Shown here one piece after another: positions 1-7,268 of a DNA stretch of 7,268 nucleotides. The stretch's first letter is position 1, and the number at the start of each line of letters is the position of its first letter. Source of the stretch: a virus. Position numbers and translations under genes: made by a program. Below the pieces are notes generated by a model. It did not search any database. It was not told where the DNA came from and saw only the letters and a list, made by a program, of their open reading frames with translations. The stretch is taken from IMG/VR virus record IMGVR_UViG_3300008807_000984, positions 1-7,268 of that record; one strand, given 5' to 3'.

Positions 1-99
1 ATAGCTATCGAATCGTGAAACACGATTGCAAGAAATCATGAAACCCTCTGCACGCATACGCTCCTGCCGATGGCTGCGTGTCGCTGTCTAAACGCAGTC
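1..99. repeat. Left copy of the 99-nt exact terminal direct repeat (circular wrap-around)
   Basis: atagctatcgaatcgtgaaacacgattgcaag...gtcgctgtctaaacgcagtc is identical to 7170-7268. The right copy is cut by the window end, so the true overlap is at least 99 nt. Confidence 0.95.
11..27. repeat. Inverted repeat aatcgtg-aaa-cacgatt just after the repressor stop; function unknown
   Basis: 7-bp stem and 3-nt loop read directly; also present at 7180-7196. No T-run follows on either strand, so it is not a canonical intrinsic terminator. Confidence 0.3.
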
Positions 100-130
100 G
101 CCCCCCCCGCAAGCGGGGTCCCCCCCCGAC
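97..130. repeat. Twin homopolymer tracts: gtcg-C8-gcaagc-gggg-t-C8-gac (G8...G8 on the gene-sense strand)
   Basis: C runs at 101-108 and 120-127 flank a ccccgc/gcgggg mini-hairpin. The outer gtcg/cgac are also inverted. Read directly. Confidence 0.9.
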
Positions 131-229
131 TGCAGACAGCGAGGCGGGGCTTTCCCAAGTAGCAGCGAGCACGGTGCACGAAGGTAGAGAAAGTCAAAGG
201 CGGTCTACAGGACGCGGTGAGCGCAGACG

Positions 230-312
230 CAGAACGACCGAACCAGCCGCGTCCGAGCACCACAGCAGATCGACCGCTCACCCCGGCCGCCCGACAGAAC
301 GACCCGCGAACC
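230..312. repeat. Intergenic direct repeat cagaacgacc(-/cgc)gaacc, two copies
   Basis: 230-244 is cagaacgaccgaacc; 295-312 is cagaacgacccgcgaacc. These are the same 15 nt with a 3-nt insertion, and the copies start 65 nt apart. Confidence 0.7.
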
Positions 313-446
313 GAATAGGGCCGCGCCCTGGCACGGTACGGGCTTGGTCTGTATGTCTCGCTCGCGCGAGCCATGTTTGTGGGCCTGCGGCCGGAGCCGG
401 CTGACGCCGGAACAAGAAAACCGACACCGACCCGGGTGCAACGAGC

Positions 447-476
447 ACGCCAGGTCGGGCCAGTAACGCCAGGTCG
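447..476. repeat. Intergenic 11-nt direct repeat acgccaggtcg, two copies
   Basis: 447-457 and 466-476 are identical, 19 nt start-to-start. Confidence 0.8.
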
Positions 477-500
477 AGAACCCCGCCGCAGGACGGGGCC
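472..500 (-). terminator. Candidate weak intrinsic terminator downstream of the 82-aa ORF
   Basis: The minus strand reads CCCCG(T)CC-TGC-GGCGGGG followed by TTCTCGACC, about 55 nt after the TAG at 553-555. The GC-rich stem has one bulge and the U-tract is poor. Confidence 0.3.
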
Positions 501-552
501 TCAGCTCAGTCGCTCATGGTCGACCCGCCCAGCGACGTTACCCAGAACCCGA

Positions 553-801
553 CTACACAGGAGCGAACAACACGTCGACCTTGAAACCGATCTGCTCAAG
601 AGCCGAGACGGCGGAATCAAGCGTCTTGAATTGCCGGGCCTCGTGATCCCGAGCGTCGACCAGCCAGCTTGCACCGTTACCCTTGCCAAGCCAGATGAAC
701 CAGCCGCCGCGCTTCCCGGTCGTCAAATCCCACCGCTTGACCTCGAATCGATCCAGGTAACCCAACTCGAAATCCCGCTTCGCTTGCGCCATCGTCGCCA
801 T
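553..801 (-). CDS. Hypothetical 82-aa cytoplasmic protein; independently promoted cargo gene downstream of zot
   Basis: ATG at 801 preceded by AAGGGG-N7, the same SD and spacing as the ssb gene. TAG stop at 553-555. Its own TTGACA-N17-TAACAT promoter lies upstream. Composition looks globular (MATMAQAKRDFELGYLDRFEVKRWDL...), with no signal peptide or TM. I do not recognise a family. Confidence 0.75.
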   Translation of the reverse strand: MATMAQAKRDFELGYLDRFEVKRWDLTTGKRGGWFIWLGKGNGASWLVDARDHEARQFKTLDSAVSALEQIGFKVDVLFAPV

Positions 802-835
802 CTTCGAACCCCTTACGTTTGTTGAAAGAGACTAG

Positions 836-864
836 ATGTTACGACGTTTCCTGCTTTTTGTCAA
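836..864 (-). promoter_or_regulatory. Sigma70-like promoter for the 82-aa ORF
   Basis: Minus strand: TTGACA (864-859), a 17-nt spacer, then TAACAT (841-836). The predicted start is about 28 nt upstream of the ATG at 801. Confidence 0.5.
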
Positions 865-872
865 GAGGTTTT

Positions 873-911
873 GCCTGTTTTGTTCCACGTGGAACAGGCA
901 ATAGTTGAGTG
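873..911. promoter_or_regulatory. 16-bp perfect palindrome tgttccac/gtggaaca with flanking gcc/ggc and adjacent aatagttgagtg; candidate Rep-binding or origin element
   Basis: The palindrome at 881-896 was read directly. It shares the words TTGTTCCA, TGGAACA, TCCACGT, AATAGT and (inverted) CACTCAAC with the f1/M13 plus-strand origin core as I recall it from phagemid vectors. It lies between the zot stop (928) and the ORF82 promoter. Confidence 0.35.
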
Positions 912-927
912 CCATGTAGGGCATTGA

Positions 928-2094
928 TCACCGCCCGGCCAGGTCGCCCACCTGGCCGACGACTGGCGAATAAACGCCCGCGACGGTCGCCCCCTTGGAG
1001 GATGCCGCCGCTGCCGCCTGGGGCGGCATCGGCGGCTGAGCAGGCGCAGACACCGGACGGGCAGACTCTGCCGCTTGCGCGTCGGCCTGCACTCCGTCTG
1101 GCAGGAACTCGAGGAACGGCATCCGCTCCACCCACTGCGCGCAGATCGATTCAGGCGTATGCAACGCTTGCCCCCGCTGGTTGTAACACTCGCACCGCCG
1201 CCGGGAACGAACGCACCCGACGGGATACTCCACCGCAACCGCCGCAGTCAGCTTTCCGTACACCGGCGCGCTGTAGGGCAACCCCGGTACAACGGGCCGC
1301 CGCGCCGCCATGTACTCGGCAACAGTGCCAGCCGGCAAAACCCGATCCTCGAGAACCGAGCCCGCATCCGCCAAACGCCGGCCCGCGCCCTCGACCTCCG
1401 AAGCAACCTCACCGACCGCCCCCGACAACCGACCGAAGGCGTACCAGCCGACGCCGAGTGTTACCGCGACCAAGAGCGCCCCCAGCCACACCGCACGCGG
1501 CACCCGCCGCACCCGCGGCGTATGCAGTTCGGCGCTTTTGTACAGCCCGAAGACCTCCGCCGGAGGCTGATACCGGACGCGCTCCGCCAGCTTGCGCGAA
1601 CCGACCTCATCCGGAGCGCCTATCTGCCCATCCCAGAACAGGAGCGACGCCCCGTAAGCCGTGCTATGCACGTGGTAATGCCGGTTGACCAGCTTGCGCA
1701 CAGCCGCATCTATCAGACCCGGATGCTGCGTGATCAAAATCACGTCCACGCCCACATGCCGACGCGTGCTCAGCGCCGCGACGTGATCGGGCACACGCGA
1801 CCCTATCGGCCTCGGTGGATAGACCCTCTGCGCCTCGTCCACGACCAGAACGCACCCCTGAGGCAGGCAGAAATACGCGAGCTGGAGAGTCGCGTCTTCC
1901 TCAGCCCGCCGCAGCTCCGTCCACTCTGCAACCGGCGGAGCCGGAGCATGTTCGACACGCAGATCGGGAATCCCGTGCACAAGCACATGCCGCCCCTGCG
2001 AACGCCGGAGCCAATCGACCACCAGAGCGGTTTTTCCCGATCCGGTCGCGCCTGTTACGAGCGTCAGACCCTGCGAGATCCCCAACGTCCTCAC
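928..2094 (-). CDS. zot: Zot-like / inovirus pI morphogenesis (assembly) ATPase
   Basis: 388 aa. Walker A GATGSGKT (aa 14-21) and Walker B-like VLVVDEAQ (aa 82-89). One TM segment, AVWLGALLVAVTLGVGWYAF (about aa 201-220). The periplasmic C-terminal part carries CECYNQRGQ. The GTG start at 2094 overlaps the upstream TGA (GTGA). It is the last gene of the morphogenesis block. Confidence 0.9.
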   Translation of the reverse strand: MRTLGISQGLTLVTGATGSGKTALVVDWLRRSQGRHVLVHGIPDLRVEHAPAPPVAEWTELRRAEEDATLQLAYFCLPQGCVLVVDEAQRVYPPRPIGSRVPDHVAALSTRRHVGVDVILITQHPGLIDAAVRKLVNRHYHVHSTAYGASLLFWDGQIGAPDEVGSRKLAERVRYQPPAEVFGLYKSAELHTPRVRRVPRAVWLGALLVAVTLGVGWYAFGRLSGAVGEVASEVEGAGRRLADAGSVLEDRVLPAGTVAEYMAARRPVVPGLPYSAPVYGKLTAAVAVEYPVGCVRSRRRCECYNQRGQALHTPESICAQWVERMPFLEFLPDGVQADAQAAESARPVSAPAQPPMPPQAAAAASSKGATVAGVYSPVVGQVGDLAGR

Positions 2095-2366
2095 GGTCGC
2101 TTACCCAGCCGCGCCGCCGCGACCAGCCCGGCCCGAGCAACGAGCGCACCCAGCATGATCCCCACGGCACCCGTCAAACCGGCCAGGTTGGCGAGCGCAA
2201 GCATCGCCGCCGGCATCCCTCCCCACAAGGCGATCACCTGCGCCTGCACCGACGCAGCCAGCGTATTGAGAACCTCGTAGGTGAGCCACACGATACCAAG
2301 ACTGGCGAGCACCTTCGCGGCCAGCGGGCCCGCCATCGCCAACAGCCATGCAGCCAAGTTACCCAT
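2091..2366 (-). CDS. pVI-like small hydrophobic minor coat / virion-cap protein (DUF2523-like by architecture)
   Basis: 91 aa and almost entirely hydrophobic with 2-3 predicted TM helices (MGNLAAWLLAMAGPLAAKVLASLGIVWL...). It sits between the pIII-like gene and zot, as in CTXphi ace and Ff gVI. The ATG at 2366 overlaps the pIII-like stop by 8 nt (ATGGGTAA). Confidence 0.65.
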   Translation of the reverse strand: MGNLAAWLLAMAGPLAAKVLASLGIVWLTYEVLNTLAASVQAQVIALWGGMPAAMLALANLAGLTGAVGIMLGALVARAGLVAAARLGKRP

Positions 2367-3837
2367 TGCGCACCCCGCCTACCACGAAGATCCCCGCTCC
2401 CAACCACGCGAGAGCCAGCACGAGCGGACGCACGTAGCCAGCCAGCAAACACGCGCCGTCGAACGGCACCGACCACTGCAAGACTTGAACCGGAGCCGGG
2501 CAGCCCAACGCCTCACCCGGCAGCCCGACAGCCGACACCCCGCCGCCGGTACCAGACGCGCTATCAGCACCCCCACCGGACGCCGGAGCGCCGAGACACG
2601 CAGGACCGTAGGGATCATCCCGACACGCGCTGCTACCATCGCCCTGCGTCTGGCTGCCCGTCGACGCGCTTGTACTGGTGCTAGTACCATTCGTCGCCGT
2701 TCCGCTCGAGCCCCCCCCGGCATTCGTTACCGTCGTCGTCGAGTTACAAGAACCGCCAGTACAAGTCTGCGTCTGCGTCGTCGCCGTCGTGCCCCCGCCA
2801 GGACCCGTCACGACACTCGTTTTCTTCGTCGAGGTCGTCTGCGCATCCACGCACACCACCGTACCGTTGACCGTGCCCCACTGCTTGCCAGCCTTCGCGC
2901 AATCCGCCTCAGGCGTATTCGGCTGCACAACCGGACTCGTCCCGGGAGCAGATGAACACGTAGCACCAGTGAACGAAGGCGAGCCGATCCAGAACCAATT
3001 GCCGCTCGTGCCATAGCCCGCGCCCGAATACTCGCTCCCGAGCGTCACCGTGCACCCCGACACGCACGTCGTCGCAGGTACAGTCGCGCCCACCCCCGTA
3101 TAGATCCGATAGTCAATCGTCAGCGGCTGATCAACCACGCGATACGGGTCACCGCCAACCCCGTTCGCCATGTACTTCCCCGCCGGGCAGGCGGTGCACG
3201 TGCCATCAGACGCCCGCCCGTACTGGCAGTCGGGACGGGTGCACTGATTGCCCTGCAAAGTCCAGTTCTGGCCCGCCGGGCACGAGTAGACCGAACCCTG
3301 ACTACAGGTCCACCCCGGGTACGAGCCCACGATGCTTCCCGCCGCGCAGTACCAATCCCGCCTGAGCTGATAAGTCCAACCCGATCCGCCGTTCCCCATC
3401 TGCGTAGCACTCTGACGAACCGTGAACCACTCGACGACACCACTACCGGCACCATCGTAAGCCGCTGGCCTCGGCGGAGGAGTAACACTCCAATACGACG
3501 GACCATAAGCCCAACCCCCGGCACCCGCCGCGCTGTAGTGTTGCAACGCCCGCGACTGCGCCTCGGAATACGTGCCCGTAAACGGAGCGCCCCAAGGCCC
3601 AGCCCAAGACTCGAGAGGCACAGCAGAACCCGCGGTCGCCGCTATCGTTTCCGCCCTCGCCGGCACGAGCCAGACGAAAGCGATCAGCACCCCGAACGCG
3701 AACGCCAGCAGCCCCCGCACCACACGCCAGATCACAGTCGCCACACCAGCACGCCACCAAGAAGAACGACGGTCAGGAACCCCGACCACTGCAGAAACAC
3801 GATGTCCACCGCTCACCCTCTCAGAAAGCGCCCCCAC
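2359..3837 (-). CDS. pIII-like adsorption / minor coat protein (start uncertain: GTG 3837, GTG 3816 or GTG about 3744)
   Basis: It is the largest ORF of the coat-to-zot block and lies immediately before the pVI-like gene. It has a signal-peptide-like segment, RGLLAFAFGVLIAFVWLVPARA/ETIA. I count 18 Cys in the ectodomain. A G/S/T-rich linker (TNAGGGSSGTATNGTSTSTSASTGSQTQGDGSS) precedes a C-terminal hydrophobic anchor, LVLALAWLGAGIFVVGG. GTG 3816 forms GTGA with the upstream stop. Confidence 0.7.
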   Translation of the reverse strand: MGALSERVSGGHRVSAVVGVPDRRSSWWRAGVATVIWRVVRGLLAFAFGVLIAFVWLVPARAETIAATAGSAVPLESWAGPWGAPFTGTYSEAQSRALQHYSAAGAGGWAYGPSYWSVTPPPRPAAYDGAGSGVVEWFTVRQSATQMGNGGSGWTYQLRRDWYCAAGSIVGSYPGWTCSQGSVYSCPAGQNWTLQGNQCTRPDCQYGRASDGTCTACPAGKYMANGVGGDPYRVVDQPLTIDYRIYTGVGATVPATTCVSGCTVTLGSEYSGAGYGTSGNWFWIGSPSFTGATCSSAPGTSPVVQPNTPEADCAKAGKQWGTVNGTVVCVDAQTTSTKKTSVVTGPGGGTTATTQTQTCTGGSCNSTTTVTNAGGGSSGTATNGTSTSTSASTGSQTQGDGSSACRDDPYGPACLGAPASGGGADSASGTGGGVSAVGLPGEALGCPAPVQVLQWSVPFDGACLLAGYVRPLVLALAWLGAGIFVVGGVRNG

Positions 3838-4196
3838 GCCAGCACACCGACCGCGACCGCGACCGCCGCTTGCTCGAACGCAACAACCACGCCGAAGTCA
3901 CCCGCATAGTCGACCGGATAGGTCACTCCCGGCGAGCACATCGACCCCATGTACAAATTGCTCCCCTGCACGGTGTACGACCCGCCAAACGCACGACGAA
4001 GAACGGTAATCGTGCCCGGGCCGAACGCATCGCCCAGCCCAACGGACCAGCAATAGTCGCCCCCGGTACCGCAACCGGCATCGCGCCCGACGAACGCCCA
4101 AGAACAGTAGCCAGTCTCCGGCAGGTACTGCCACGGGTCGCCGCCAGGCGCACCGAAAGCAGGTGCCGCAGGAGCACCAGGTGGAAGCGCAGGCAT
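3813..4196 (-). CDS. Hypothetical 127-aa protein with C-terminal hydrophobic anchor (putative minor virion or morphogenesis protein)
   Basis: The ATG at 4196 overlaps the upstream TAA by one base (TAATG). It has a P/A/G-rich N-terminus, 4 Cys, and the C-terminal segment FGVVVAFEQAAVAVAVGVLAWGRFLRG. Third-position G/T bias matches the other genes. The longer track ORF (to 4232) would overlap the upstream gene by 37 nt. Confidence 0.55.
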   Translation of the reverse strand: MPALPPGAPAAPAFGAPGGDPWQYLPETGYCSWAFVGRDAGCGTGGDYCWSVGLGDAFGPGTITVLRRAFGGSYTVQGSNLYMGSMCSPGVTYPVDYAGDFGVVVAFEQAAVAVAVGVLAWGRFLRG

Positions 4197-4534
4197 TACA
4201 AGAGCTGCCGCCGGATCACCGCGGCCCACCAAGCGACCAACAACACACCGAGAACCAGCATGCCAACCGCCGCGCCATCGACGAACGCGCCCGCCGGGTC
4301 ACAGGTGGCGACGCCCGACGAACTCACCGGCACCGAACCGCACGCCAGACCCGACCGCACCGCCGTCGAACTCAATTGCGCCCGGCAGAACTGCCAGCCC
4401 GCAGACGCATCCTTCTTGAAGAAGGTTTCATACGTAGTCGCCGCAGGGTTGTACGTCGGAGGAATCGCTCCGAAAGTGGCGTCCTGCCACTGTTCCCACG
4501 TGTCGTAACACATCGTTCCCCGCAAGTAACCCAC
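4196..4534 (-). CDS. 112-aa tail-anchored protein whose C-terminal 28 aa align without gaps to the major coat protein (coat paralog / putative minor coat)
   Basis: The GTG at 4534 is preceded by GGGAGG-N8. There are 4 Cys and no N-terminal signal peptide. The C-terminus VDGAAVGMLVLGVLLVAWWAAVIRRQLL aligns to the coat ADAITVATAMVGVTAALLVFRYIRRQLH with 10/28 identical residues, including IRRQL at the same distance from the stop. Confidence 0.6.
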   Translation of the reverse strand: MGYLRGTMCYDTWEQWQDATFGAIPPTYNPAATTYETFFKKDASAGWQFCRAQLSSTAVRSGLACGSVPVSSSGVATCDPAGAFVDGAAVGMLVLGVLLVAWWAAVIRRQLL

Positions 4535-4548
4535 GCGGCAGACCTCCC

Positions 4549-4575
4549 GAAGAAGAAGGGCCGCCGCAGCGGCCC
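4549..4575 (-). terminator. Intrinsic (probably leaky) terminator immediately after the major coat gene
   Basis: The minus strand reads GGGCCGC-TGCG-GCGGCCC followed by TTCTTCTTC, starting 11 nt after the coat TAA. The SD (GGGAGG) of the next gene follows directly. This matches the position of the attenuating terminator after gVIII in Ff phages. Confidence 0.6.
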
Positions 4576-4585
4576 GGACGCCGGC

Positions 4586-4771
4586 TTAGTGAAGCTGGCG
4601 ACGGATGTACCGGAAGACCAGGAGCGCCGCGGTAACGCCGACCATGGCGGTCGCCACCGTGATCGCATCGGCCTGCAGATCGGTAATGGCCGTGGTGATG
4701 GCCGTCGGAACGGCAGCGAACGCGCTCAGCGGAGCGATGGAGACGGCAACGCCGGCAATCTTCTTGATCAT
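4586..4771 (-). CDS. Major coat protein (g8p-type) precursor, 61 aa
   Basis: ATG at 4771 with a consensus AGGAGG-N6 SD. The signal peptide MIKKIAGVAVSIAPLSAFA has an AFA/A cleavage motif. The mature protein is about 42 aa, with an acidic/polar N-terminus (TDLQAD), a hydrophobic core and a basic C-terminus (RYIRRQLH). The 144-aa track ORF is a spurious upstream extension into rep. Confidence 0.9.
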   Translation of the reverse strand: MIKKIAGVAVSIAPLSAFAAVPTAITTAITDLQADAITVATAMVGVTAALLVFRYIRRQLH

Positions 4772-4783
4772 GACAAACCTCCT

Positions 4784-4846
4784 GAAAGGAAAAAGGAACG
4801 CACCATTGCGCCCCCGCAAGCCCCAAGGCTTGCAGTGAAACACTGG
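4784..4846 (-). promoter_or_regulatory. rep-coat intergenic stem-loops plus pyrimidine tract upstream of the coat SD
   Basis: Minus strand after the rep TAG: CAGTG-TTT-CACTG, then GCAAGCC-TTGG-GGCTTGC (4833-4816), then TTCCTTTTTCCTTTC (4798-4784) abutting AGGAGG. The structures were read directly. Whether this is an attenuator, a processing site or a translational enhancer is unknown. Confidence 0.3.
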
Positions 4847-4848
4847 CA

Positions 4849-5808
4849 CTACGCCGCCAACGCGGACACCTGACGCACCTCCACCTGCCGAACTACCCGA
4901 GTGAGAGCCTGCACATTGCACGGGACCCGGATATCGAAACCGCACGCAAGCAGACGATTCGCGACCCGGTGGAAGGTCGATTCCGCGCACAACGACCGCA
5001 CGTCGACACCATCCCGCCAAAGGACGGCGTAATGACGCAGCCGCGCCGGAATCTCATCCCACCGCTCGACACTCACCGAATCGCGGAACACCTGGCCCGC
5101 GAACCGCCCATAAATCACCTTCGCCATATCATCACCCGTGCCCCATGCCTCTACCGTGTCCAAACCTGCCCGACGCAGGTACTCCGCCCCCAGTTGAACC
5201 TCGAACCGAGCGACCGTAGGCCCAACGCCCCCCCGCTTCTTCCCGGCCAGCTCCGCAGTCTTGTCGTACAGCTTCGCCCGGTACCAGCCCGCGCGCTTCG
5301 CCCCGTAGCCCCACGTCGGCCCGTACCTCCCCATGATCGGGAGAATCCGCCCGATCCGCCGCACCGACATCGCGTGGCACAAACCCGCGTAATCGCTTAC
5401 CTCGTAGTTGCCGGCGAGGTCCACACGCGTCACCACGGTACCGAGCCGCCCGAACTCCGACCGAGAACCGGCAGACCCGAAGTCATGCAGCTCGAAGCCG
5501 CACACATCAAGAAGCACTCGCGCACGCTCGGCGCAATGAGCAACCGAATAGCCCCGCAGATTGTCCGCCCGCCCGTACCGCCCGATATTGCCGCTCACCC
5601 GCAGAGTGCGACCGTCGCACCGCGCCCTGATCGACGTGTCGCTGGACTCGCACCGGATGGAATCCCAACACTGAGACTGCCACTCCAGACAGCCGTCGGG
5701 ATCGAGCTTCAGGACCCGCCCGGACTCGCGCATGGGCACCCCATCCTGATAGGTGTGGACCAGCGTCAACCAGTCACAACAAACCGATTCCACGTGCCCG
5801 ACTCTCAC
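4849..5808 (-). CDS. Rolling-circle replication initiation protein, phage gene II/X (Phage_CRI-like) family
   Basis: 319 aa. It has an N-terminal CDWLTLVH motif, RVDLAGNYEV, and the Tyr-containing AKLYDKT motif, which I recall as typical of gpII/RstA-type inovirus Rep proteins. Size and position fit an inovirus replication module. The GTG start at 5808 lies inside an 18-bp palindrome (alternative GTG at 5793). Confidence 0.8.
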   Translation of the reverse strand: MRVGHVESVCCDWLTLVHTYQDGVPMRESGRVLKLDPDGCLEWQSQCWDSIRCESSDTSIRARCDGRTLRVSGNIGRYGRADNLRGYSVAHCAERARVLLDVCGFELHDFGSAGSRSEFGRLGTVVTRVDLAGNYEVSDYAGLCHAMSVRRIGRILPIMGRYGPTWGYGAKRAGWYRAKLYDKTAELAGKKRGGVGPTVARFEVQLGAEYLRRAGLDTVEAWGTGDDMAKVIYGRFAGQVFRDSVSVERWDEIPARLRHYAVLWRDGVDVRSLCAESTFHRVANRLLACGFDIRVPCNVQALTRVVRQVEVRQVSALAA

Positions 5809-5846
5809 ATGTGAGAGTTAGTTGCAGTGGTACTAGCACTGCAACT
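5801..5846. promoter_or_regulatory. Two adjacent dyads at the rep 5' end: an 18-bp perfect palindrome and a 10-bp-stem hairpin
   Basis: actctcacatgtgagagt (5801-5818) is a perfect palindrome containing the rep GTG. agttgcagtg-gtactag-cactgcaact (5820-5846) is a perfect 10-bp stem with a 7-nt loop. Both were read directly. Confidence 0.6.
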
Positions 5847-5866
5847 CGAAAACCGACCGTTTCCGG

Positions 5867-6067
5867 TCATGCCGCAGGCACCCCGGCAAGCTGCAATTGA
5901 TCGCCGCGCAGCGCATCCGAATCCCGACAGACGAGCGGCTGATGGCCAGCACAGTAAGCAGTCACGTCAGTCAGCGTGCCAACCCGAGAACAAAGCGCCT
6001 GACCCCTGGCCGGCGCAGTCGGCTTGCGAGCGTGCCGGCAGTTGAGACATTGCGCGTGCTCGCTCAC
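5867..6067 (-). CDS. Hypothetical small Cys-rich protein (66 aa from GTG 6067; 69 aa from GTG 6076)
   Basis: GTG 6067 forms GTGA with the upstream stop. The protein contains CLNC plus three further Cys. The stop at 5867-5869 precedes the rep-proximal hairpins. No family recognised. Confidence 0.45.
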   Translation of the reverse strand: MSEHAQCLNCRHARKPTAPARGQALCSRVGTLTDVTAYCAGHQPLVCRDSDALRGDQLQLAGVPAA

Positions 6068-6330
6068 TGTGCCCACTCCGACCCGTCAATGCCGCCGCAC
6101 ACATACGCGACATGTTGATCCGCCGTGAAATCCCCGACATCCAGGCAGCGACCCGTCGCACCCTCCACGAAACCACGCCAGTAAGCCAAGCGCAGCTCAC
6201 GCGGAAAAGCCTTGGCCAGCCGTTGAGCTTGCCTGCGAGCAATCACACCAAAAGCCACCAGATCAGGATGAGTCAGCGAGAACTCATCCACGCCCCGAAC
6301 AGTCACGCTCACGACCTCAGGCGCGTTCAC
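6064..6330 (-). CDS. Hypothetical 88-aa protein (GTG start coupled to the ssb stop)
   Basis: GTG 6330 overlaps the ssb TGA (GTGA). Composition looks globular (VNAPEVVSVTVRGVDEFSLTHPDLVAFGVIARRQAQRLAKAF...). The 158-aa track ORF would overlap ssb by 214 nt, and its extension is Arg/Gly/Ala-rich and junk-like. No family recognised. Confidence 0.5.
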   Translation of the reverse strand: MNAPEVVSVTVRGVDEFSLTHPDLVAFGVIARRQAQRLAKAFPRELRLAYWRGFVEGATGRCLDVGDFTADQHVAYVCGGIDGSEWAQ

Positions 6331-6635
6331 GCCGCAGACCTCGTCGCTGCGACCGTGGCCGAGGTAGCCGGCTTCAGCCGGAGACGCAGATCGAGCATGC
6401 GGAACCGATCCACGAAGAACGACGACGGGCAAATCGTATAGCTCCCAGGCGGGTAGGGCGCTTGGGTGTCCTCCAGACCGACCACCACCCGCTCGGGATG
6501 CGGCCGGACACGGCCCTCTTTGTCGCAGGTATGCACCCACGCCTCTTGCTCCCGAATGCTGTACTTCTTGCCGGTGCGCTGGCTCACACCCTCCTTGGTG
6601 ACGACTTCCGCACTGCTGATTTCCACTCGTAACAT
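6327..6635 (-). CDS. ssDNA-binding protein, inovirus G5P-like
   Basis: 102 aa, ATG at 6635 with AAGGGG-N7 SD. The sequence pattern MLRVEISSAEVVTKEGVSQRTGKKYSIREQEAWVH...PPGSYTICPSSFFVDRF...LRLKPA runs parallel to the Pf3-type ssDNA-binding protein as I recall it (short beta-rich OB fold, P-x-GSY motif, basic C-terminus). It is the first gene of the leftward operon. Confidence 0.75.
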   Translation of the reverse strand: MLRVEISSAEVVTKEGVSQRTGKKYSIREQEAWVHTCDKEGRVRPHPERVVVGLEDTQAPYPPGSYTICPSSFFVDRFRMLDLRLRLKPATSATVAATRSAA

Positions 6636-6664
6636 TTGCTTGCCCCTTGCGTTAGTTGGTAGGC

Positions 6665-6680
6665 GTCCGGCGAACCGGAC
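6665..6680. promoter_or_regulatory. Operator-like dyad O1: gtccgg-cgaa-ccggac
   Basis: Perfect 6-4-6 inverted repeat, located just downstream of the putative -10 of the leftward promoter, around the predicted transcription start. Confidence 0.4.
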
Positions 6681-6686
6681 ACCGCA

Positions 6687-6715
6687 ACGATAGTCCTGTC
6701 AGCCGGACGTTGCAA
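6687..6715 (-). promoter_or_regulatory. Putative leftward promoter of the ssb-to-zot operon
   Basis: Minus strand: TTGCAA (6715-6710), a 17-nt spacer, then TATCGT (6692-6687). The spacer is filled by dyad O2 (6693-6708). Confidence 0.4.
6693..6708. promoter_or_regulatory. Operator-like dyad O2: gtcctg-tcag-ccggac
   Basis: It has the same 6-4-6 geometry as O1 with one mismatch, 28 bp centre-to-centre from O1. It lies exactly within the -35/-10 spacer of the leftward promoter and abuts the shared TTGCAA. Confidence 0.35.
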
Positions 6716-6737
6716 GTCCTGCGAGAAGGTCTACGAT
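6710..6737 (+). promoter_or_regulatory. Putative rightward promoter of the repressor gene, sharing the palindromic -35 hexamer
   Basis: Plus strand: TTGCAA (6710-6715), a 16-nt spacer, then TACGAT (6732-6737). This predicts a start near 6744, which would favour the ATG at 6772 (SD AGGAG at 6759-6763) over the ATG at 6736. Confidence 0.35.
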
Positions 6738-6771
6738 GAAGAAGCAGAGTTGTGCAGTAGGAGAAACAGAA

Positions 6772-7173
6772 ATGACCCCAAGCGATTATCTCGACGCAGC
6801 GAAGCAAGCTATGGGCATCGCAAGCGACTACGAATTGGCGAAGCGACTCGATGTCCGCAGGCAGAGAATCAGCGCCTACAGAAACGGCACCGACTGGCCG
6901 GAAAATTACGTCGTCATGAAGATCGCCATAGCCCTGAACCTAGACCCGGTGGGCGTTCTAGCCGATTTGGAAAGCCAGAAGGAGAAGCGACCCGAACGCG
7001 CCGCATTCTGGAAGTCTTTTCTATCGCGTGCCGCCCTGCTGGCAGTCTTGGCGTGCACGCTGGCGTGGATTTCTACCGATATTTCGCTGCCCGGACTCGC
7101 GCGGATTTCTGGCGGAAGCGGGACTGACTATGCCGATGGACTTCGTATAATTTGGAGTTACGTAAGCCCATAG
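6772..7173 (+). CDS. HTH (Cro/C1-XRE-like) phage repressor with C-terminal hydrophobic helix; alternative start ATG 6736
   Basis: This is the only plus-strand gene and it diverges from the structural operon, as rstR does in CTXphi. The HTH-like segment is IASDYELAKRLDVRRQRISAYRNG. A hydrophobic stretch, AALLAVLACTLAWI, lies near the C-terminus. AGGAG-N8-ATG at 6772. The region is visibly lower in GC than the rest of the genome. The stop TAG (7171-7173) lies within the terminal repeat. Confidence 0.75.
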   Translation: MTPSDYLDAAKQAMGIASDYELAKRLDVRRQRISAYRNGTDWPENYVVMKIAIALNLDPVGVLADLESQKEKRPERAAFWKSFLSRAALLAVLACTLAWISTDISLPGLARISGGSGTDYADGLRIIWSYVSP

Positions 7174-7268
7174 CTATCGAATCGTGAAACACGATTGCAA
7201 GAAATCATGAAACCCTCTGCACGCATACGCTCCTGCCGATGGCTGCGTGTCGCTGTCTAAACGCAGTC
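7170..7268. repeat. Right copy of the 99-nt terminal direct repeat
   Basis: Base-for-base identical to 1-99 (offset 7,169). It contains the repressor stop codon TAG at 7171-7173 (equivalent to nt 2-4). Confidence 0.95.

Follow-up and report, generated by a model that had tools for sequence, protein, structure and literature searches.

IMG/VR virus record IMGVR_UViG_3300008807_000984 is a stretch of 7,268 nucleotides (nt) that carries genes of a filamentous phage, and we asked whether it holds a complete genome, how that genome is related to known phages, and how such a phage might be maintained in its host. The whole stretch, positions 1 to 7,268, is referred to here as the window. The window very probably represents one complete 7,169-nt unit of a temperate inovirus, recovered as a self-overlapping contig, that has a mosaic genome, appears to integrate by Xer recombination at dif and most likely infects a member of the Rhodocyclaceae. 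The phage is previously undescribed and otherwise ordinary, and it belongs to well-known kinds.

The first question was whether the unit is complete. The left and right copies of the terminal repeat (1..99 and 7170..7268, neither assigned to a strand) are identical at 99 of 99 positions, as an earlier sequence-only reading (the original prediction) had stated, and give a period of 7,169 nt. That prediction took the repeat to be truncated at the window edge. However, the Rep protein encoded in the window is 100% identical to a database protein (P0173) recorded from a JGI/IMG contig of exactly 7,268 nt, so the window is the entire contig. Because of this, the 99-mer is an overlap of contig ends with no host DNA beyond it, the type of overlap left by de Bruijn assemblers on circular or tandem templates. 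The continuation into host DNA past 7268 for which the original prediction had allowed does not occur, as the contig ends there.

Contigs from other samples or sequencing runs cross the join between the two ends. L077 (SRR19611631), which is 95-98% identical to the window, is collinear with it from 5476 through 7268/1 to 224 and then from 548 to 2610; L087 (SRR19577261) is collinear from 6061 through 7268/1 to 122; and L009 (SRR25998718) likewise spans the join. Judged by these alignments, the two window ends are adjacent in nature. Several relatives also end in overlaps of k-mer size (30 nt in L009, 141 nt in L012, 55 nt in L081 and 123 nt in L085), which fall at differing genome positions. 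The original prediction of a complete, circularly closed genome thus stands in that the unit closes and independent contigs cross its junction, but a free circle and a tandem prophage are inseparable by sequence because the junction between copies in an Xer-type array is the same sequence as the attachment site, attP. For the same reason junction-spanning reads, the check proposed with the prediction, would not discriminate between them.

The minus strand, which bears nearly all of the genes, is rich in G and T (G 2653, C 1942, T 1552, A 1022) in a unit with a G+C content of 0.639. This skew of the coding strand (G over C and T over A) is as expected if it is the packaged strand. Together with the self-overlapping ends, it lends indirect support to a circular single-stranded DNA (ssDNA) genome in a filamentous virion.

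We searched the predicted proteins against Pfam, PHROG, NCBIfam and PADLOC. The core inovirus set named in the original prediction (ssDNA-binding protein, Rep, coat, pIII-like, pVI-like, Zot/pI and repressor) was matched by Pfam, PHROG or NCBIfam families, and these genes stand in the order typical of inoviruses, all on the minus strand except the repressor gene. The pI/Zot-type assembly ATPase (928..2094, minus strand, 388 amino acids (aa)) matched Zot (5.5e-18) and phrog_197 (3.6e-59) and has one transmembrane (TM) segment at residues 198-221. It is adjoined by genes for a pVI-like minor coat protein (2091..2366, minus strand, 91 aa; DUF2523, 2.4e-12, and phrog_1242) and a pIII-like adsorption protein (2359..3735, minus strand, 458 aa). 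The latter matched phrog_4352 and the NCBIfam TspB C-terminal domain (27.7 bits, cut-off 24), and begins with a signal peptide and a variable N-terminal domain, followed by a Cys-rich middle part, a linker rich in Gly, Ser and Thr, and an anchor at the C-terminus. The major coat protein precursor (4586..4771, minus strand, 61 aa) matched Phage_Coat_B (1e-11), has AGGAGG ahead of its ATG, and contains two hydrophobic segments arranged as a signal peptide and a mature protein of ~42 aa. The G5P-type ssDNA-binding protein gene, ssb (6327..6635, minus strand, 102 aa; Phage_DNA_bind, 7.8e-20, and phrog_1199), encodes a protein found in identical form on four Logan contigs. Gene coordinates in the original prediction had to be amended for the coat protein (now 61 aa at 4586-4771), the pIII-like start (3735) and the repressor start (probably 6772).

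No secretin was found in the unit, and its absence is usual among inoviruses outside the Ff group. We also found no recombinase, as judged by integrase, transposase and serine-recombinase domains, in any sense or antisense open reading frame (ORF). Roux et al. (2019) recognized inoviruses by a pI-like ATPase whose closest domain is Zot and which has one or two TM segments, and further by a major coat protein that is small and combines a signal peptide with a single TM helix (PMC6813254). The window encodes a Zot protein with one TM segment and a 61-aa coat protein alongside rep, ssb, pIII-like and pVI-like genes, and its 7,169 nt lie within the ~5-10 kb range.

The repressor (6772..7173, plus strand, 133 aa) is a helix-turn-helix (HTH) protein that matched HTH_3 (1.3e-6), phrog_638 (3.6e-21) and, weakly, RstR; in PADLOC, the similarity was of a generic HTH kind only. 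An alternative ATG at 6736 would give 145 aa. The start is probably 6772, since AGGAGA lies 8 nt before that ATG and relatives begin at the equivalent Met.

How a phage that encodes no recombinase could be temperate is suggested by the 3' end of the repressor gene. Within its last codons lies a 29-bp dif-like attP (7140..7168, plus strand) composed of a XerC arm (ACTTCGTATAA), a centre (TTTGGAG) and a XerD arm (TTACGTAAGCC). Compared with the host dif derived below, it shares all 7 positions of the CGTATAA core and the TTTG on the XerC side, has a 7-nt centre, and matches at 7 of 11 positions in the XerD arm. It is the sole such site in the genome; the pattern (a regular expression) matched nowhere in 5,000 shuffled sequences, which places its chance expectation below 2e-4 per genome. 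The site is conserved in L077, L081, L085, L087 and L009. A scan with the E. coli dif consensus and a fixed 6-nt spacer returned nothing, because the phage site has a 7-nt centre; only the prophage junction of a relative led to it.

That relative, L010 (JAFLDM010000085.1), is a 21-kb contig binned as an Accumulibacter sp. metagenome-assembled genome (MAG). When it was compared with the circular form of the same lineage, L012, phage identity broke off within a dif-like stretch at the repressor gene's 3' end. The site reads ACTACTGATAA-TTTGCGA-TTATGTTAGGC in the circular form and ACTACTGATAA-TTTGTA-TTATGTAAAGT at the L010 junction. The exchange falls exactly at the boundary of XerC arm and centre when the L012 circle is compared with either L010 or L082, which holds another hybrid junction. 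On its sequence, the L010 junction is the hybrid expected of a XerC-side exchange.

The host side of this junction allowed the host dif to be assigned. The flank-side 21-mer, ATAATTTGTATTATGTAAAGT, had 53 exact matches in 185,579 species genomes, where ~0.3 would be expected for a collection of this size, with one per contig. The bases just upstream of it, which were outside the search, are conserved as CG(C/T)ATAA, the canonical core of a XerC arm. From these matches and the conserved upstream core, the Rhodocyclaceae dif is therefore derived as nnnnCG(C/T)ATAA-TTTGTA-TTATGTAAAGT. GC skew switched only weakly at dif, in the expected direction at 18 of the 26 loci that had 1.5 kb or more of sequence to either side. 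Inovirus prophages lie beside a perfect dif in L001, a Rhodocyclaceae MAG, and in L004. On this sequence evidence, the window lineage appears to integrate at the host dif by means of the host XerC and XerD.

Several other observations concern dif loci and contig ends. In L071 (a Ca. Dechloromonas phosphorivorans MAG), positions 7556-7745 encode a 35-aa repressor-like stretch 65 nt from dif, and in L061 (an Accumulibacter MAG) a Zot homologue lies ~3 kb from dif; both resemble additional prophages, or remnants of them, at dif sites of Rhodocyclaceae. Inspection of L071 and of the left flank of L010 for host genes or prophage structure was uninformative. The L010 flank encodes one protein with tandem repeats of ~30 aa (GGGQPGGGPSGFSGVLLERPD-ILGVVS), and the flank may be another mobile element stacked at dif. 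The ENA scaffold L011 carries a run of ~100 N exactly at the attP region (7172-7272) with two variant attP copies flanking it, which fits assembly ambiguity between integrated and circular forms. In the window itself, the contig break (7169/7170) lies 1 nt past the end of the XerD arm; this could be a coincidence (a break would lie within ~30 nt of that point, to either side, with a chance of ~1%) or a graph branch caused by integrated copies present in the sample.

Because attP sits in the last repressor codons, integration would rewrite the C-terminus of the repressor. In the window lineage, the predicted change is from ...RIIWSYVSP* to ...RIICIM*, which ends at a stop codon contributed by the XerD arm of dif. 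The 130-aa repressor of L010 ends exactly as predicted (...RIICIM*), and on integration the repressor of the L012 lineage goes from 163 aa to 130 aa. The form of the repressor could in this way be tied to whether the phage is integrated. Near the C-terminus, hydrophobic 19-mers cover residues 82-107 of the repressor; this TM-like helix (FWKSFLSRAALLAVLACTLAWI) is conserved and is also present in relatives.

Several lines of evidence point to the host. Named genomes with the 21-mer are mostly Rhodocyclaceae (Accumulibacter, Propionivibrio, Dechloromonas and Azonexus) or unclassified Betaproteobacteria, and they include a complete Ca. Accumulibacter phosphatis genome. A relative (P0006) sits in an Accumulibacter MAG, the best genome match for Zot is a Rhodocyclaceae MAG, and the G+C content is 64%. 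Because of the dif match, the MAG, the Zot match and the G+C content, the host is most likely one of the wastewater Rhodocyclaceae of the Accumulibacter/Propionivibrio/Dechloromonas group. The original prediction had suggested a beta- or gamma-proteobacterial host, which this evidence narrows to the betaproteobacterial Rhodocyclaceae. Literature searches returned no inoviruses of Accumulibacter or Rhodocyclaceae and nothing on the sample accessions.

We then considered how the genome is related to others. The original prediction had asked whether a near-identical phage was already described, and none turned up: megablast and blastn, including a distant mode, gave no DNA match in 50,697 GenBank phage records. 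Protein identity to GenBank phages was at most 36% for Zot and at most 26% for Rep. An exact 45-mer search in IMG/VR had no match. Exact look-ups of Zot, Rep and the 82-aa ORF (orf82) were empty because gene callers had picked other start codons; that of ssb matched. Uncultivated relatives, by comparison, are common in large assembly collections (Logan, ENA and IMG/VR contigs), and they share the gene order, the attP position and the stem of an origin hairpin, the loop of which differs in L081/L085.

Comparison with these relatives divided the genome into three modules and a fourth variable stretch, and no single relative matches throughout. Module A (from ~4780 through 7169 to 122) holds attP, the repressor, ssb, orf88, orf66, the origin and rep; its identity to L087 is 94-100%, and a 2,166-nt part of it is matched at 100% by L079. 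Module B (~3300-4780), with the coat gene, orf112, orf127, a 25-aa ORF and the N-terminal domain of the pIII-like protein, has no close relative. Module C (~900-3300), comprising the C-terminal two thirds of the pIII-like protein, pVI and Zot, is 96-97% identical to L009. The remaining stretch (~122-900), orf82 with the intergenic region, varies independently of the other modules. The breakpoints fall at hairpins between rep and the coat gene (~4780), in frame within the pIII-like gene (~3300) and just past the Zot stop codon (~900). At the first of these, the hairpins occupy 4794..4846 on the minus strand, and it is there that identity to L087 falls from 93-100% to ~65%. L077 independently shows the combination of module C, orf82 and module A, which argues against an assembly chimera at those joins. 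We read the genome, on these alignments, as a natural mosaic.

Rep (4849..5808, minus strand) had been called gpII-type in the original prediction. Its C-terminal domain, PHROG family, homologues and predicted fold uphold that assignment, but the N-terminal Pfam match is below threshold. G2P_X_C (PF05155) scored 42.4 bits (cut-off 25, 1.1e-10) and phrog_702 2.3e-27, and the N-terminal Phage_CRI domain (PF05144) reached 19.3 bits against a cut-off of 21.7 (1e-3). Homologues at 50-56% identity carry both Pfam domains. An AlphaFold2 (AF2) model of Rep had a confidence score (pLDDT) of 87, and its only significant Foldseek matches in the PDB were RepDE structures (4cwc/4cwe, E 3e-5); searches of PDB sequences with Rep and the pIII-like protein found nothing. 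Judged by sequence and modelled fold, Rep is a rolling-circle initiator of the gpII/Rep_trans superfamily. Its true start is likely the GTG at 5793, giving 314 aa. Both Tyr176, in the motif KLYDK, and Met223 are invariant in 44 Rep sequences, and Met223 could start a nested 92-aa product like that of gene X (pX).

Directly upstream of this start lies an origin-like hairpin cluster (5802..5868, minus strand) made up of hairpin 0 (5855-5868), hairpin 1 (5820-5846) and hairpin 2 (5802-5817). The region folds as ssDNA with z = -4.9. Hairpin 1, of 27 nt, reads AGTTGCAGTG-CTAGTAC-CACTGCAACT and precedes the probable rep start by 26 nt. In every lineage of this Rep clade that was examined, with the window, L009-13, L073-76, L077 and a Thauera aromatica prophage (L086) among them, its sequence is 100% conserved; the set includes IMG/VR contigs, and the Reps of these lineages are only 52-79% identical to that of the window. 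In L081/L085 and L083 the stem is kept and the loop varies. Hairpin 2 differs between lineages, with compensatory changes in 3 of 6 pairs. This pattern suggests that hairpin 1 is likely the Rep nick site, and so the plus-strand origin, and that hairpin 2 may be a lineage-specific Rep-binding element.

The T. aromatica contig (GCA_023093595.1, 130 kb) holds two inovirus prophages in inverted orientation at 9100-20978. Both have the same arrangement of structural genes (a 65-aa coat protein, a 510-aa protein, a 98-aa DUF2523 protein and a Zot of 342 or 338 aa). Their Reps differ, one being of Phage_CRI type with the invariant hairpin and the other of Rep_trans type. A pattern search found no dif-like site there.

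Other readings of the contig have to be weighed against an integrating, mosaic inovirus. The assembler may have collapsed a head-to-tail prophage array at a host dif into one self-overlapping unit. L010 is integrated in this manner, with one full unit followed by an intact attP and the start of a second copy, and the attP-identical junctions of Xer-type arrays would leave the same overlap; a contig break 1 nt from the end of attP would also fit a graph branch at a host junction. However, no hybrid junction of host and phage from the window lineage was found in any collection, and the self-overlapping circles formed by several relatives are broken at unrelated positions. We consider the array an unlikely source of this contig, and one that is compatible with a temperate inovirus, which is expected in both states. 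A phage that is purely episomal, in which the 29-mer is no functional attachment site and is conserved only because it encodes the repressor C-terminus, seems less probable again. Coding constraint could account for the conservation of a site within a gene, the XerD arm is degenerate, and no integrated copy of the lineage was found. Yet 27-29 of the 29 positions are kept in L077, L081, L085 and L087 while the surrounding DNA drops to ~80% identity, the homologous site of the L012 lineage is a demonstrable crossover point, and the XerC arm and XerC-side centre, the key parts in an exchange of the type used by the Vibrio phage VGJphi, match the host dif perfectly. The low chance expectation of the pattern also speaks against an incidental match.

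The abrupt shifts in identity to relatives at ~4780, 3300 and 900 raise the further question of whether co-occurring inoviruses were joined by the assembler at shared sequence, so that this exact genome is absent from nature. Related lineages do co-occur in one assembly (L081 and L082, both from ERZ761603), and no other contig shows module B or its two joins. Against such a chimera, L077, from another sample, has the same arrangement of Zot module, orf82, intergenic region and replication module, at 95-98% identity; all ORFs are intact, overlapping start and stop codons persist where the modules meet, and the pIII-like reading frame continues through the break at 3300. Modular exchange is also usual among inoviruses. 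We therefore regard a chimera as the least probable of these explanations, with little chance of being correct.

Several points nevertheless weigh against a naturally mosaic, Xer-integrating phage of Rhodocyclaceae. The joins of modules A and B (~4780) and of B and C (~3300) are seen only in this contig. The predicted hybrid junction of the window lineage had no match in the 185,579 species genomes, Rep relatives were likewise absent from these species-representative genomes, and the XerD arm of attP is degenerate, with 7 of 11 positions shared with the host dif. The DNA next to the L010 prophage (1-5200) encodes only proteins without a Pfam match, and this flank alone does not prove a chromosomal context. 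The host assignment is indirect, drawing on dif similarity, the MAG binning of a 61%-identical relative and G+C content; some 21-mer matches fall in Burkholderiales and unclassified bins, and the TTTGTA-type dif may extend beyond the Rhodocyclaceae. We infer the nick site and the hairpin roles, the identity of the packaged strand and the role of the 25-aa ORF described below from sequence.

The remaining genes were examined for family membership and conservation. The original prediction listed five ORFs that match no family. This holds for those of 82, 88, 66 and 127 aa, which have no Pfam, PHROG, NCBIfam or PADLOC family, but the 112-aa ORF at 4196-4534 matches phrog_12382. Most adjacent genes share an overlap (GTGA, TAATG or ATGGGTAA), a sign that their translation may be coupled. 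The start of orf88 (6064..6330, minus strand) overlaps the ssb stop codon in this way (GTGA), and its product is 54-91% identical at the aa level in relatives. The product of orf66 (5867..6067, minus strand; 51-92% aa identity in relatives) is Cys-rich, with the pattern CxxC...C...C...C.

Between the coat gene and the pIII-like gene are three small ORFs, each of which ends in a hydrophobic helix and a coat-like basic tail. The phrog_12382 match of orf112 (4196..4534, minus strand) was 7.4e-15; its product has a C-terminal TM segment as membrane anchor, the basic tail IRRQLL, and 44-64% aa identity to relatives. The product of orf127 (3813..4196, minus strand) combines a variable ectodomain with a C-terminal membrane anchor. 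Its homologues occur only in L083 (58%) and L087 (61%), and the ORFs at the equivalent position in L009 and L012 have nothing but the anchor, ...GR(F/L)LRG, in common with it. The hydrophobic 25-aa ORF (MDIVFLQWSGFLTVVLLGGVLVWRL; 3732..3809, minus strand) has a stop codon that overlaps the pIII-like start (GTGA). It is left uncalled by gene finders in the window and in relatives and was overlooked in the original prediction, and the same ORF is present in L009, L012 and L087. By sequence, this ORF likely encodes a minor coat protein of the pVII/pIX type. All three are probably minor virion proteins, that of orf127 possibly a tip protein. Directly past the coat stop codon, a GC hairpin with a T-rich tail (4558..4575, minus strand) is a candidate terminator, by analogy with the Ff terminator after gene VIII.

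The accessory gene orf82 (553..801, minus strand) has its own sigma-70-like promoter, TTGACA-17-TAACAT (836..864, minus strand; 10 of 12 consensus positions). No other gene is as well conserved between the window and the L012 lineage, with 88-90% aa identity compared with 61% for Zot. Its homologues form 52 clusters, none of which is named or has a Pfam match. An AF2 model (pLDDT 89) has an alpha-beta3-alpha topology and gave no significant fold match; a likeness to double-stranded RNA-binding domains reached only E ~0.5 and was not counted as evidence. It may be an accessory gene of the moron type.

Two noncoding regions also stand out. The divergent region between the repressor gene and ssb (6636..6771, no strand assigned) contains an inverted repeat (I6; 6664-6680 and 6693-6709, 17 nt, 82% complementary) and is a candidate for the operator and promoters. 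In the large intergenic region, a long, G-rich, imperfect hairpin of 60 nt (82..141, minus strand) contains two G8 runs (CGCTGTCTGCAGTCGGGGGGGGACCCCGCTTGCGGGGGGGGCGACTGCGTTTAGACAGCG). It is 85-97% conserved in L009, L077, L081 and L012, where its flanks diverge, and L012 has one compensatory pair; its fold z-score is only -1.7, which is weak. The hairpin is a candidate packaging signal or minus-strand origin. Rfam and tRNA scans of the window returned nothing.

Some ORFs were rejected as genes. A second 112-aa ORF, at 36-374 on the minus strand, is probably non-coding, unlike the real one at 4196-4534. Its G+C content is higher at second than at third codon positions (GC2 0.72, GC3 0.67), opposite to all real genes here, and it has no family. 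Against L081 it shows 58% aa identity but 79% DNA identity, the reverse of a coding pattern, and it overlaps the conserved hairpin. Long antisense ORFs of up to 401 aa had no Pfam match and low GC3.

Taken together, these features suggest a life cycle. Rep, with its Rep_trans/gpII fold, would nick the coding strand at hairpin 1, the invariant hairpin that precedes rep by 26 nt, and the neighbouring variable hairpin 2 would probably confer Rep specificity. Rolling-circle replication would then yield ssDNA coated by the G5P-type protein, the coat and tip proteins would await it in the inner membrane, and pI/Zot together with a host secretin would extrude the virion. The double-stranded form would integrate at the host dif through XerC/XerD and the single 29-bp attP, by a XerC-side exchange of the VGJphi class. 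In the searchable literature, we found no report of an inovirus with an attP inside the repressor coding sequence or with a pT181-like origin layout. It is conceivable, although we hold this with less than even confidence, that the phage and its relatives make up an undescribed Xer-dependent lineage of temperate inoviruses of polyphosphate-accumulating wastewater Rhodocyclaceae (Accumulibacter, Dechloromonas and Propionivibrio) that combines these two unreported traits.

The value of the window lies in a complete annotation, a pair of dif and attP sites, an invariant origin hairpin and a clear modular mosaic; the understanding of how inoviruses work is unchanged by these findings. It gives a complete annotated reference genome to a group of filamentous phages that is otherwise represented only by anonymous contigs from metagenomes, and the derived host dif links that group to the bacteria by which wastewater plants remove phosphorus biologically. 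The fitness and strain dynamics of these bacteria could be influenced by chronic inovirus infection without lysis and by lysogeny at dif. The 29-bp attP and the consensus for the Rhodocyclaceae dif, as well as the invariant hairpin at the origin, are directly testable and can be used as probes in prophage searches.

Among known phages, the closest by assembly protein are Ralstonia inoviruses (PE226, RS611, RSBg, RSCq and the YO series), which gave the best pI/Zot matches in the 50,697 GenBank records (33-36% identity over 84-96% of the protein). They resemble the window in their betaproteobacterial hosts, size and module order but show no DNA similarity to it, even in the distant mode, and no Rep match. 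The only detectably related Reps of GenBank phages are the gene II protein of Ff/I2-2 and 'RstA1' of Pseudomonas phage WX-Y; those of WX-Y and I2-2 share 24-26% identity with the window Rep over ~90% of the protein. The G2P_X_C domain and an invariant internal Met, which fits a nested product like that of gene X, are shared with the Ff protein. However, the window Rep is shorter, at 314-319 aa compared with ~410 aa for gpII of f1, and its N-terminal Pfam domain is below threshold. The window also differs from Ff in having ssb upstream of rep rather than downstream, and the origin directly upstream of rep.

The best structural match to the predicted Rep is RepDE of the pT181 family from S. aureus (4cwc/4cwe, probability 1.00), although sequence identity is 11%, the TM-score is 0.3, and these are proteins of plasmids rather than phages. 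In pT181 plasmids, the inverted repeat IR-II is the conserved nick site and IR-III the specificity determinant. The window resembles this origin in having a conserved hairpin, the putative nick site, beside a divergent inverted repeat.

A new inovirus from a betaproteobacterium is expected and unsurprising, because ~90% of the host-linked species among the 10,295 inovirus-like sequences of Roux et al. came from Gamma- and Betaproteobacteria (PMC6813254). With respect to integration, the closest known system is VGJphi, the class of which has a single 29-bp attP and integrates as double-stranded DNA by a XerC-catalysed exchange (PMC4246890). Like the window, VGJphi is a filamentous phage of ~7 kb with no integrase and a single 29-bp dif-like attP (11+7+11) in which identity to the host dif is confined to the XerC arm and the XerC-proximal part of the centre (PMC4246890). 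It differs in that its sequence has no detectable relationship to the window and its host belongs to another class, and in that the window attP is embedded in the last repressor codons and its integration is predicted from sequence. Because dif identity lies on the XerC side, XerC-catalysed integration of the double-stranded form is expected here as well. By these features, with hybrid prophage junctions known from relatives only, the window matches the VGJphi class of phages that exploit the host Xer recombinases.

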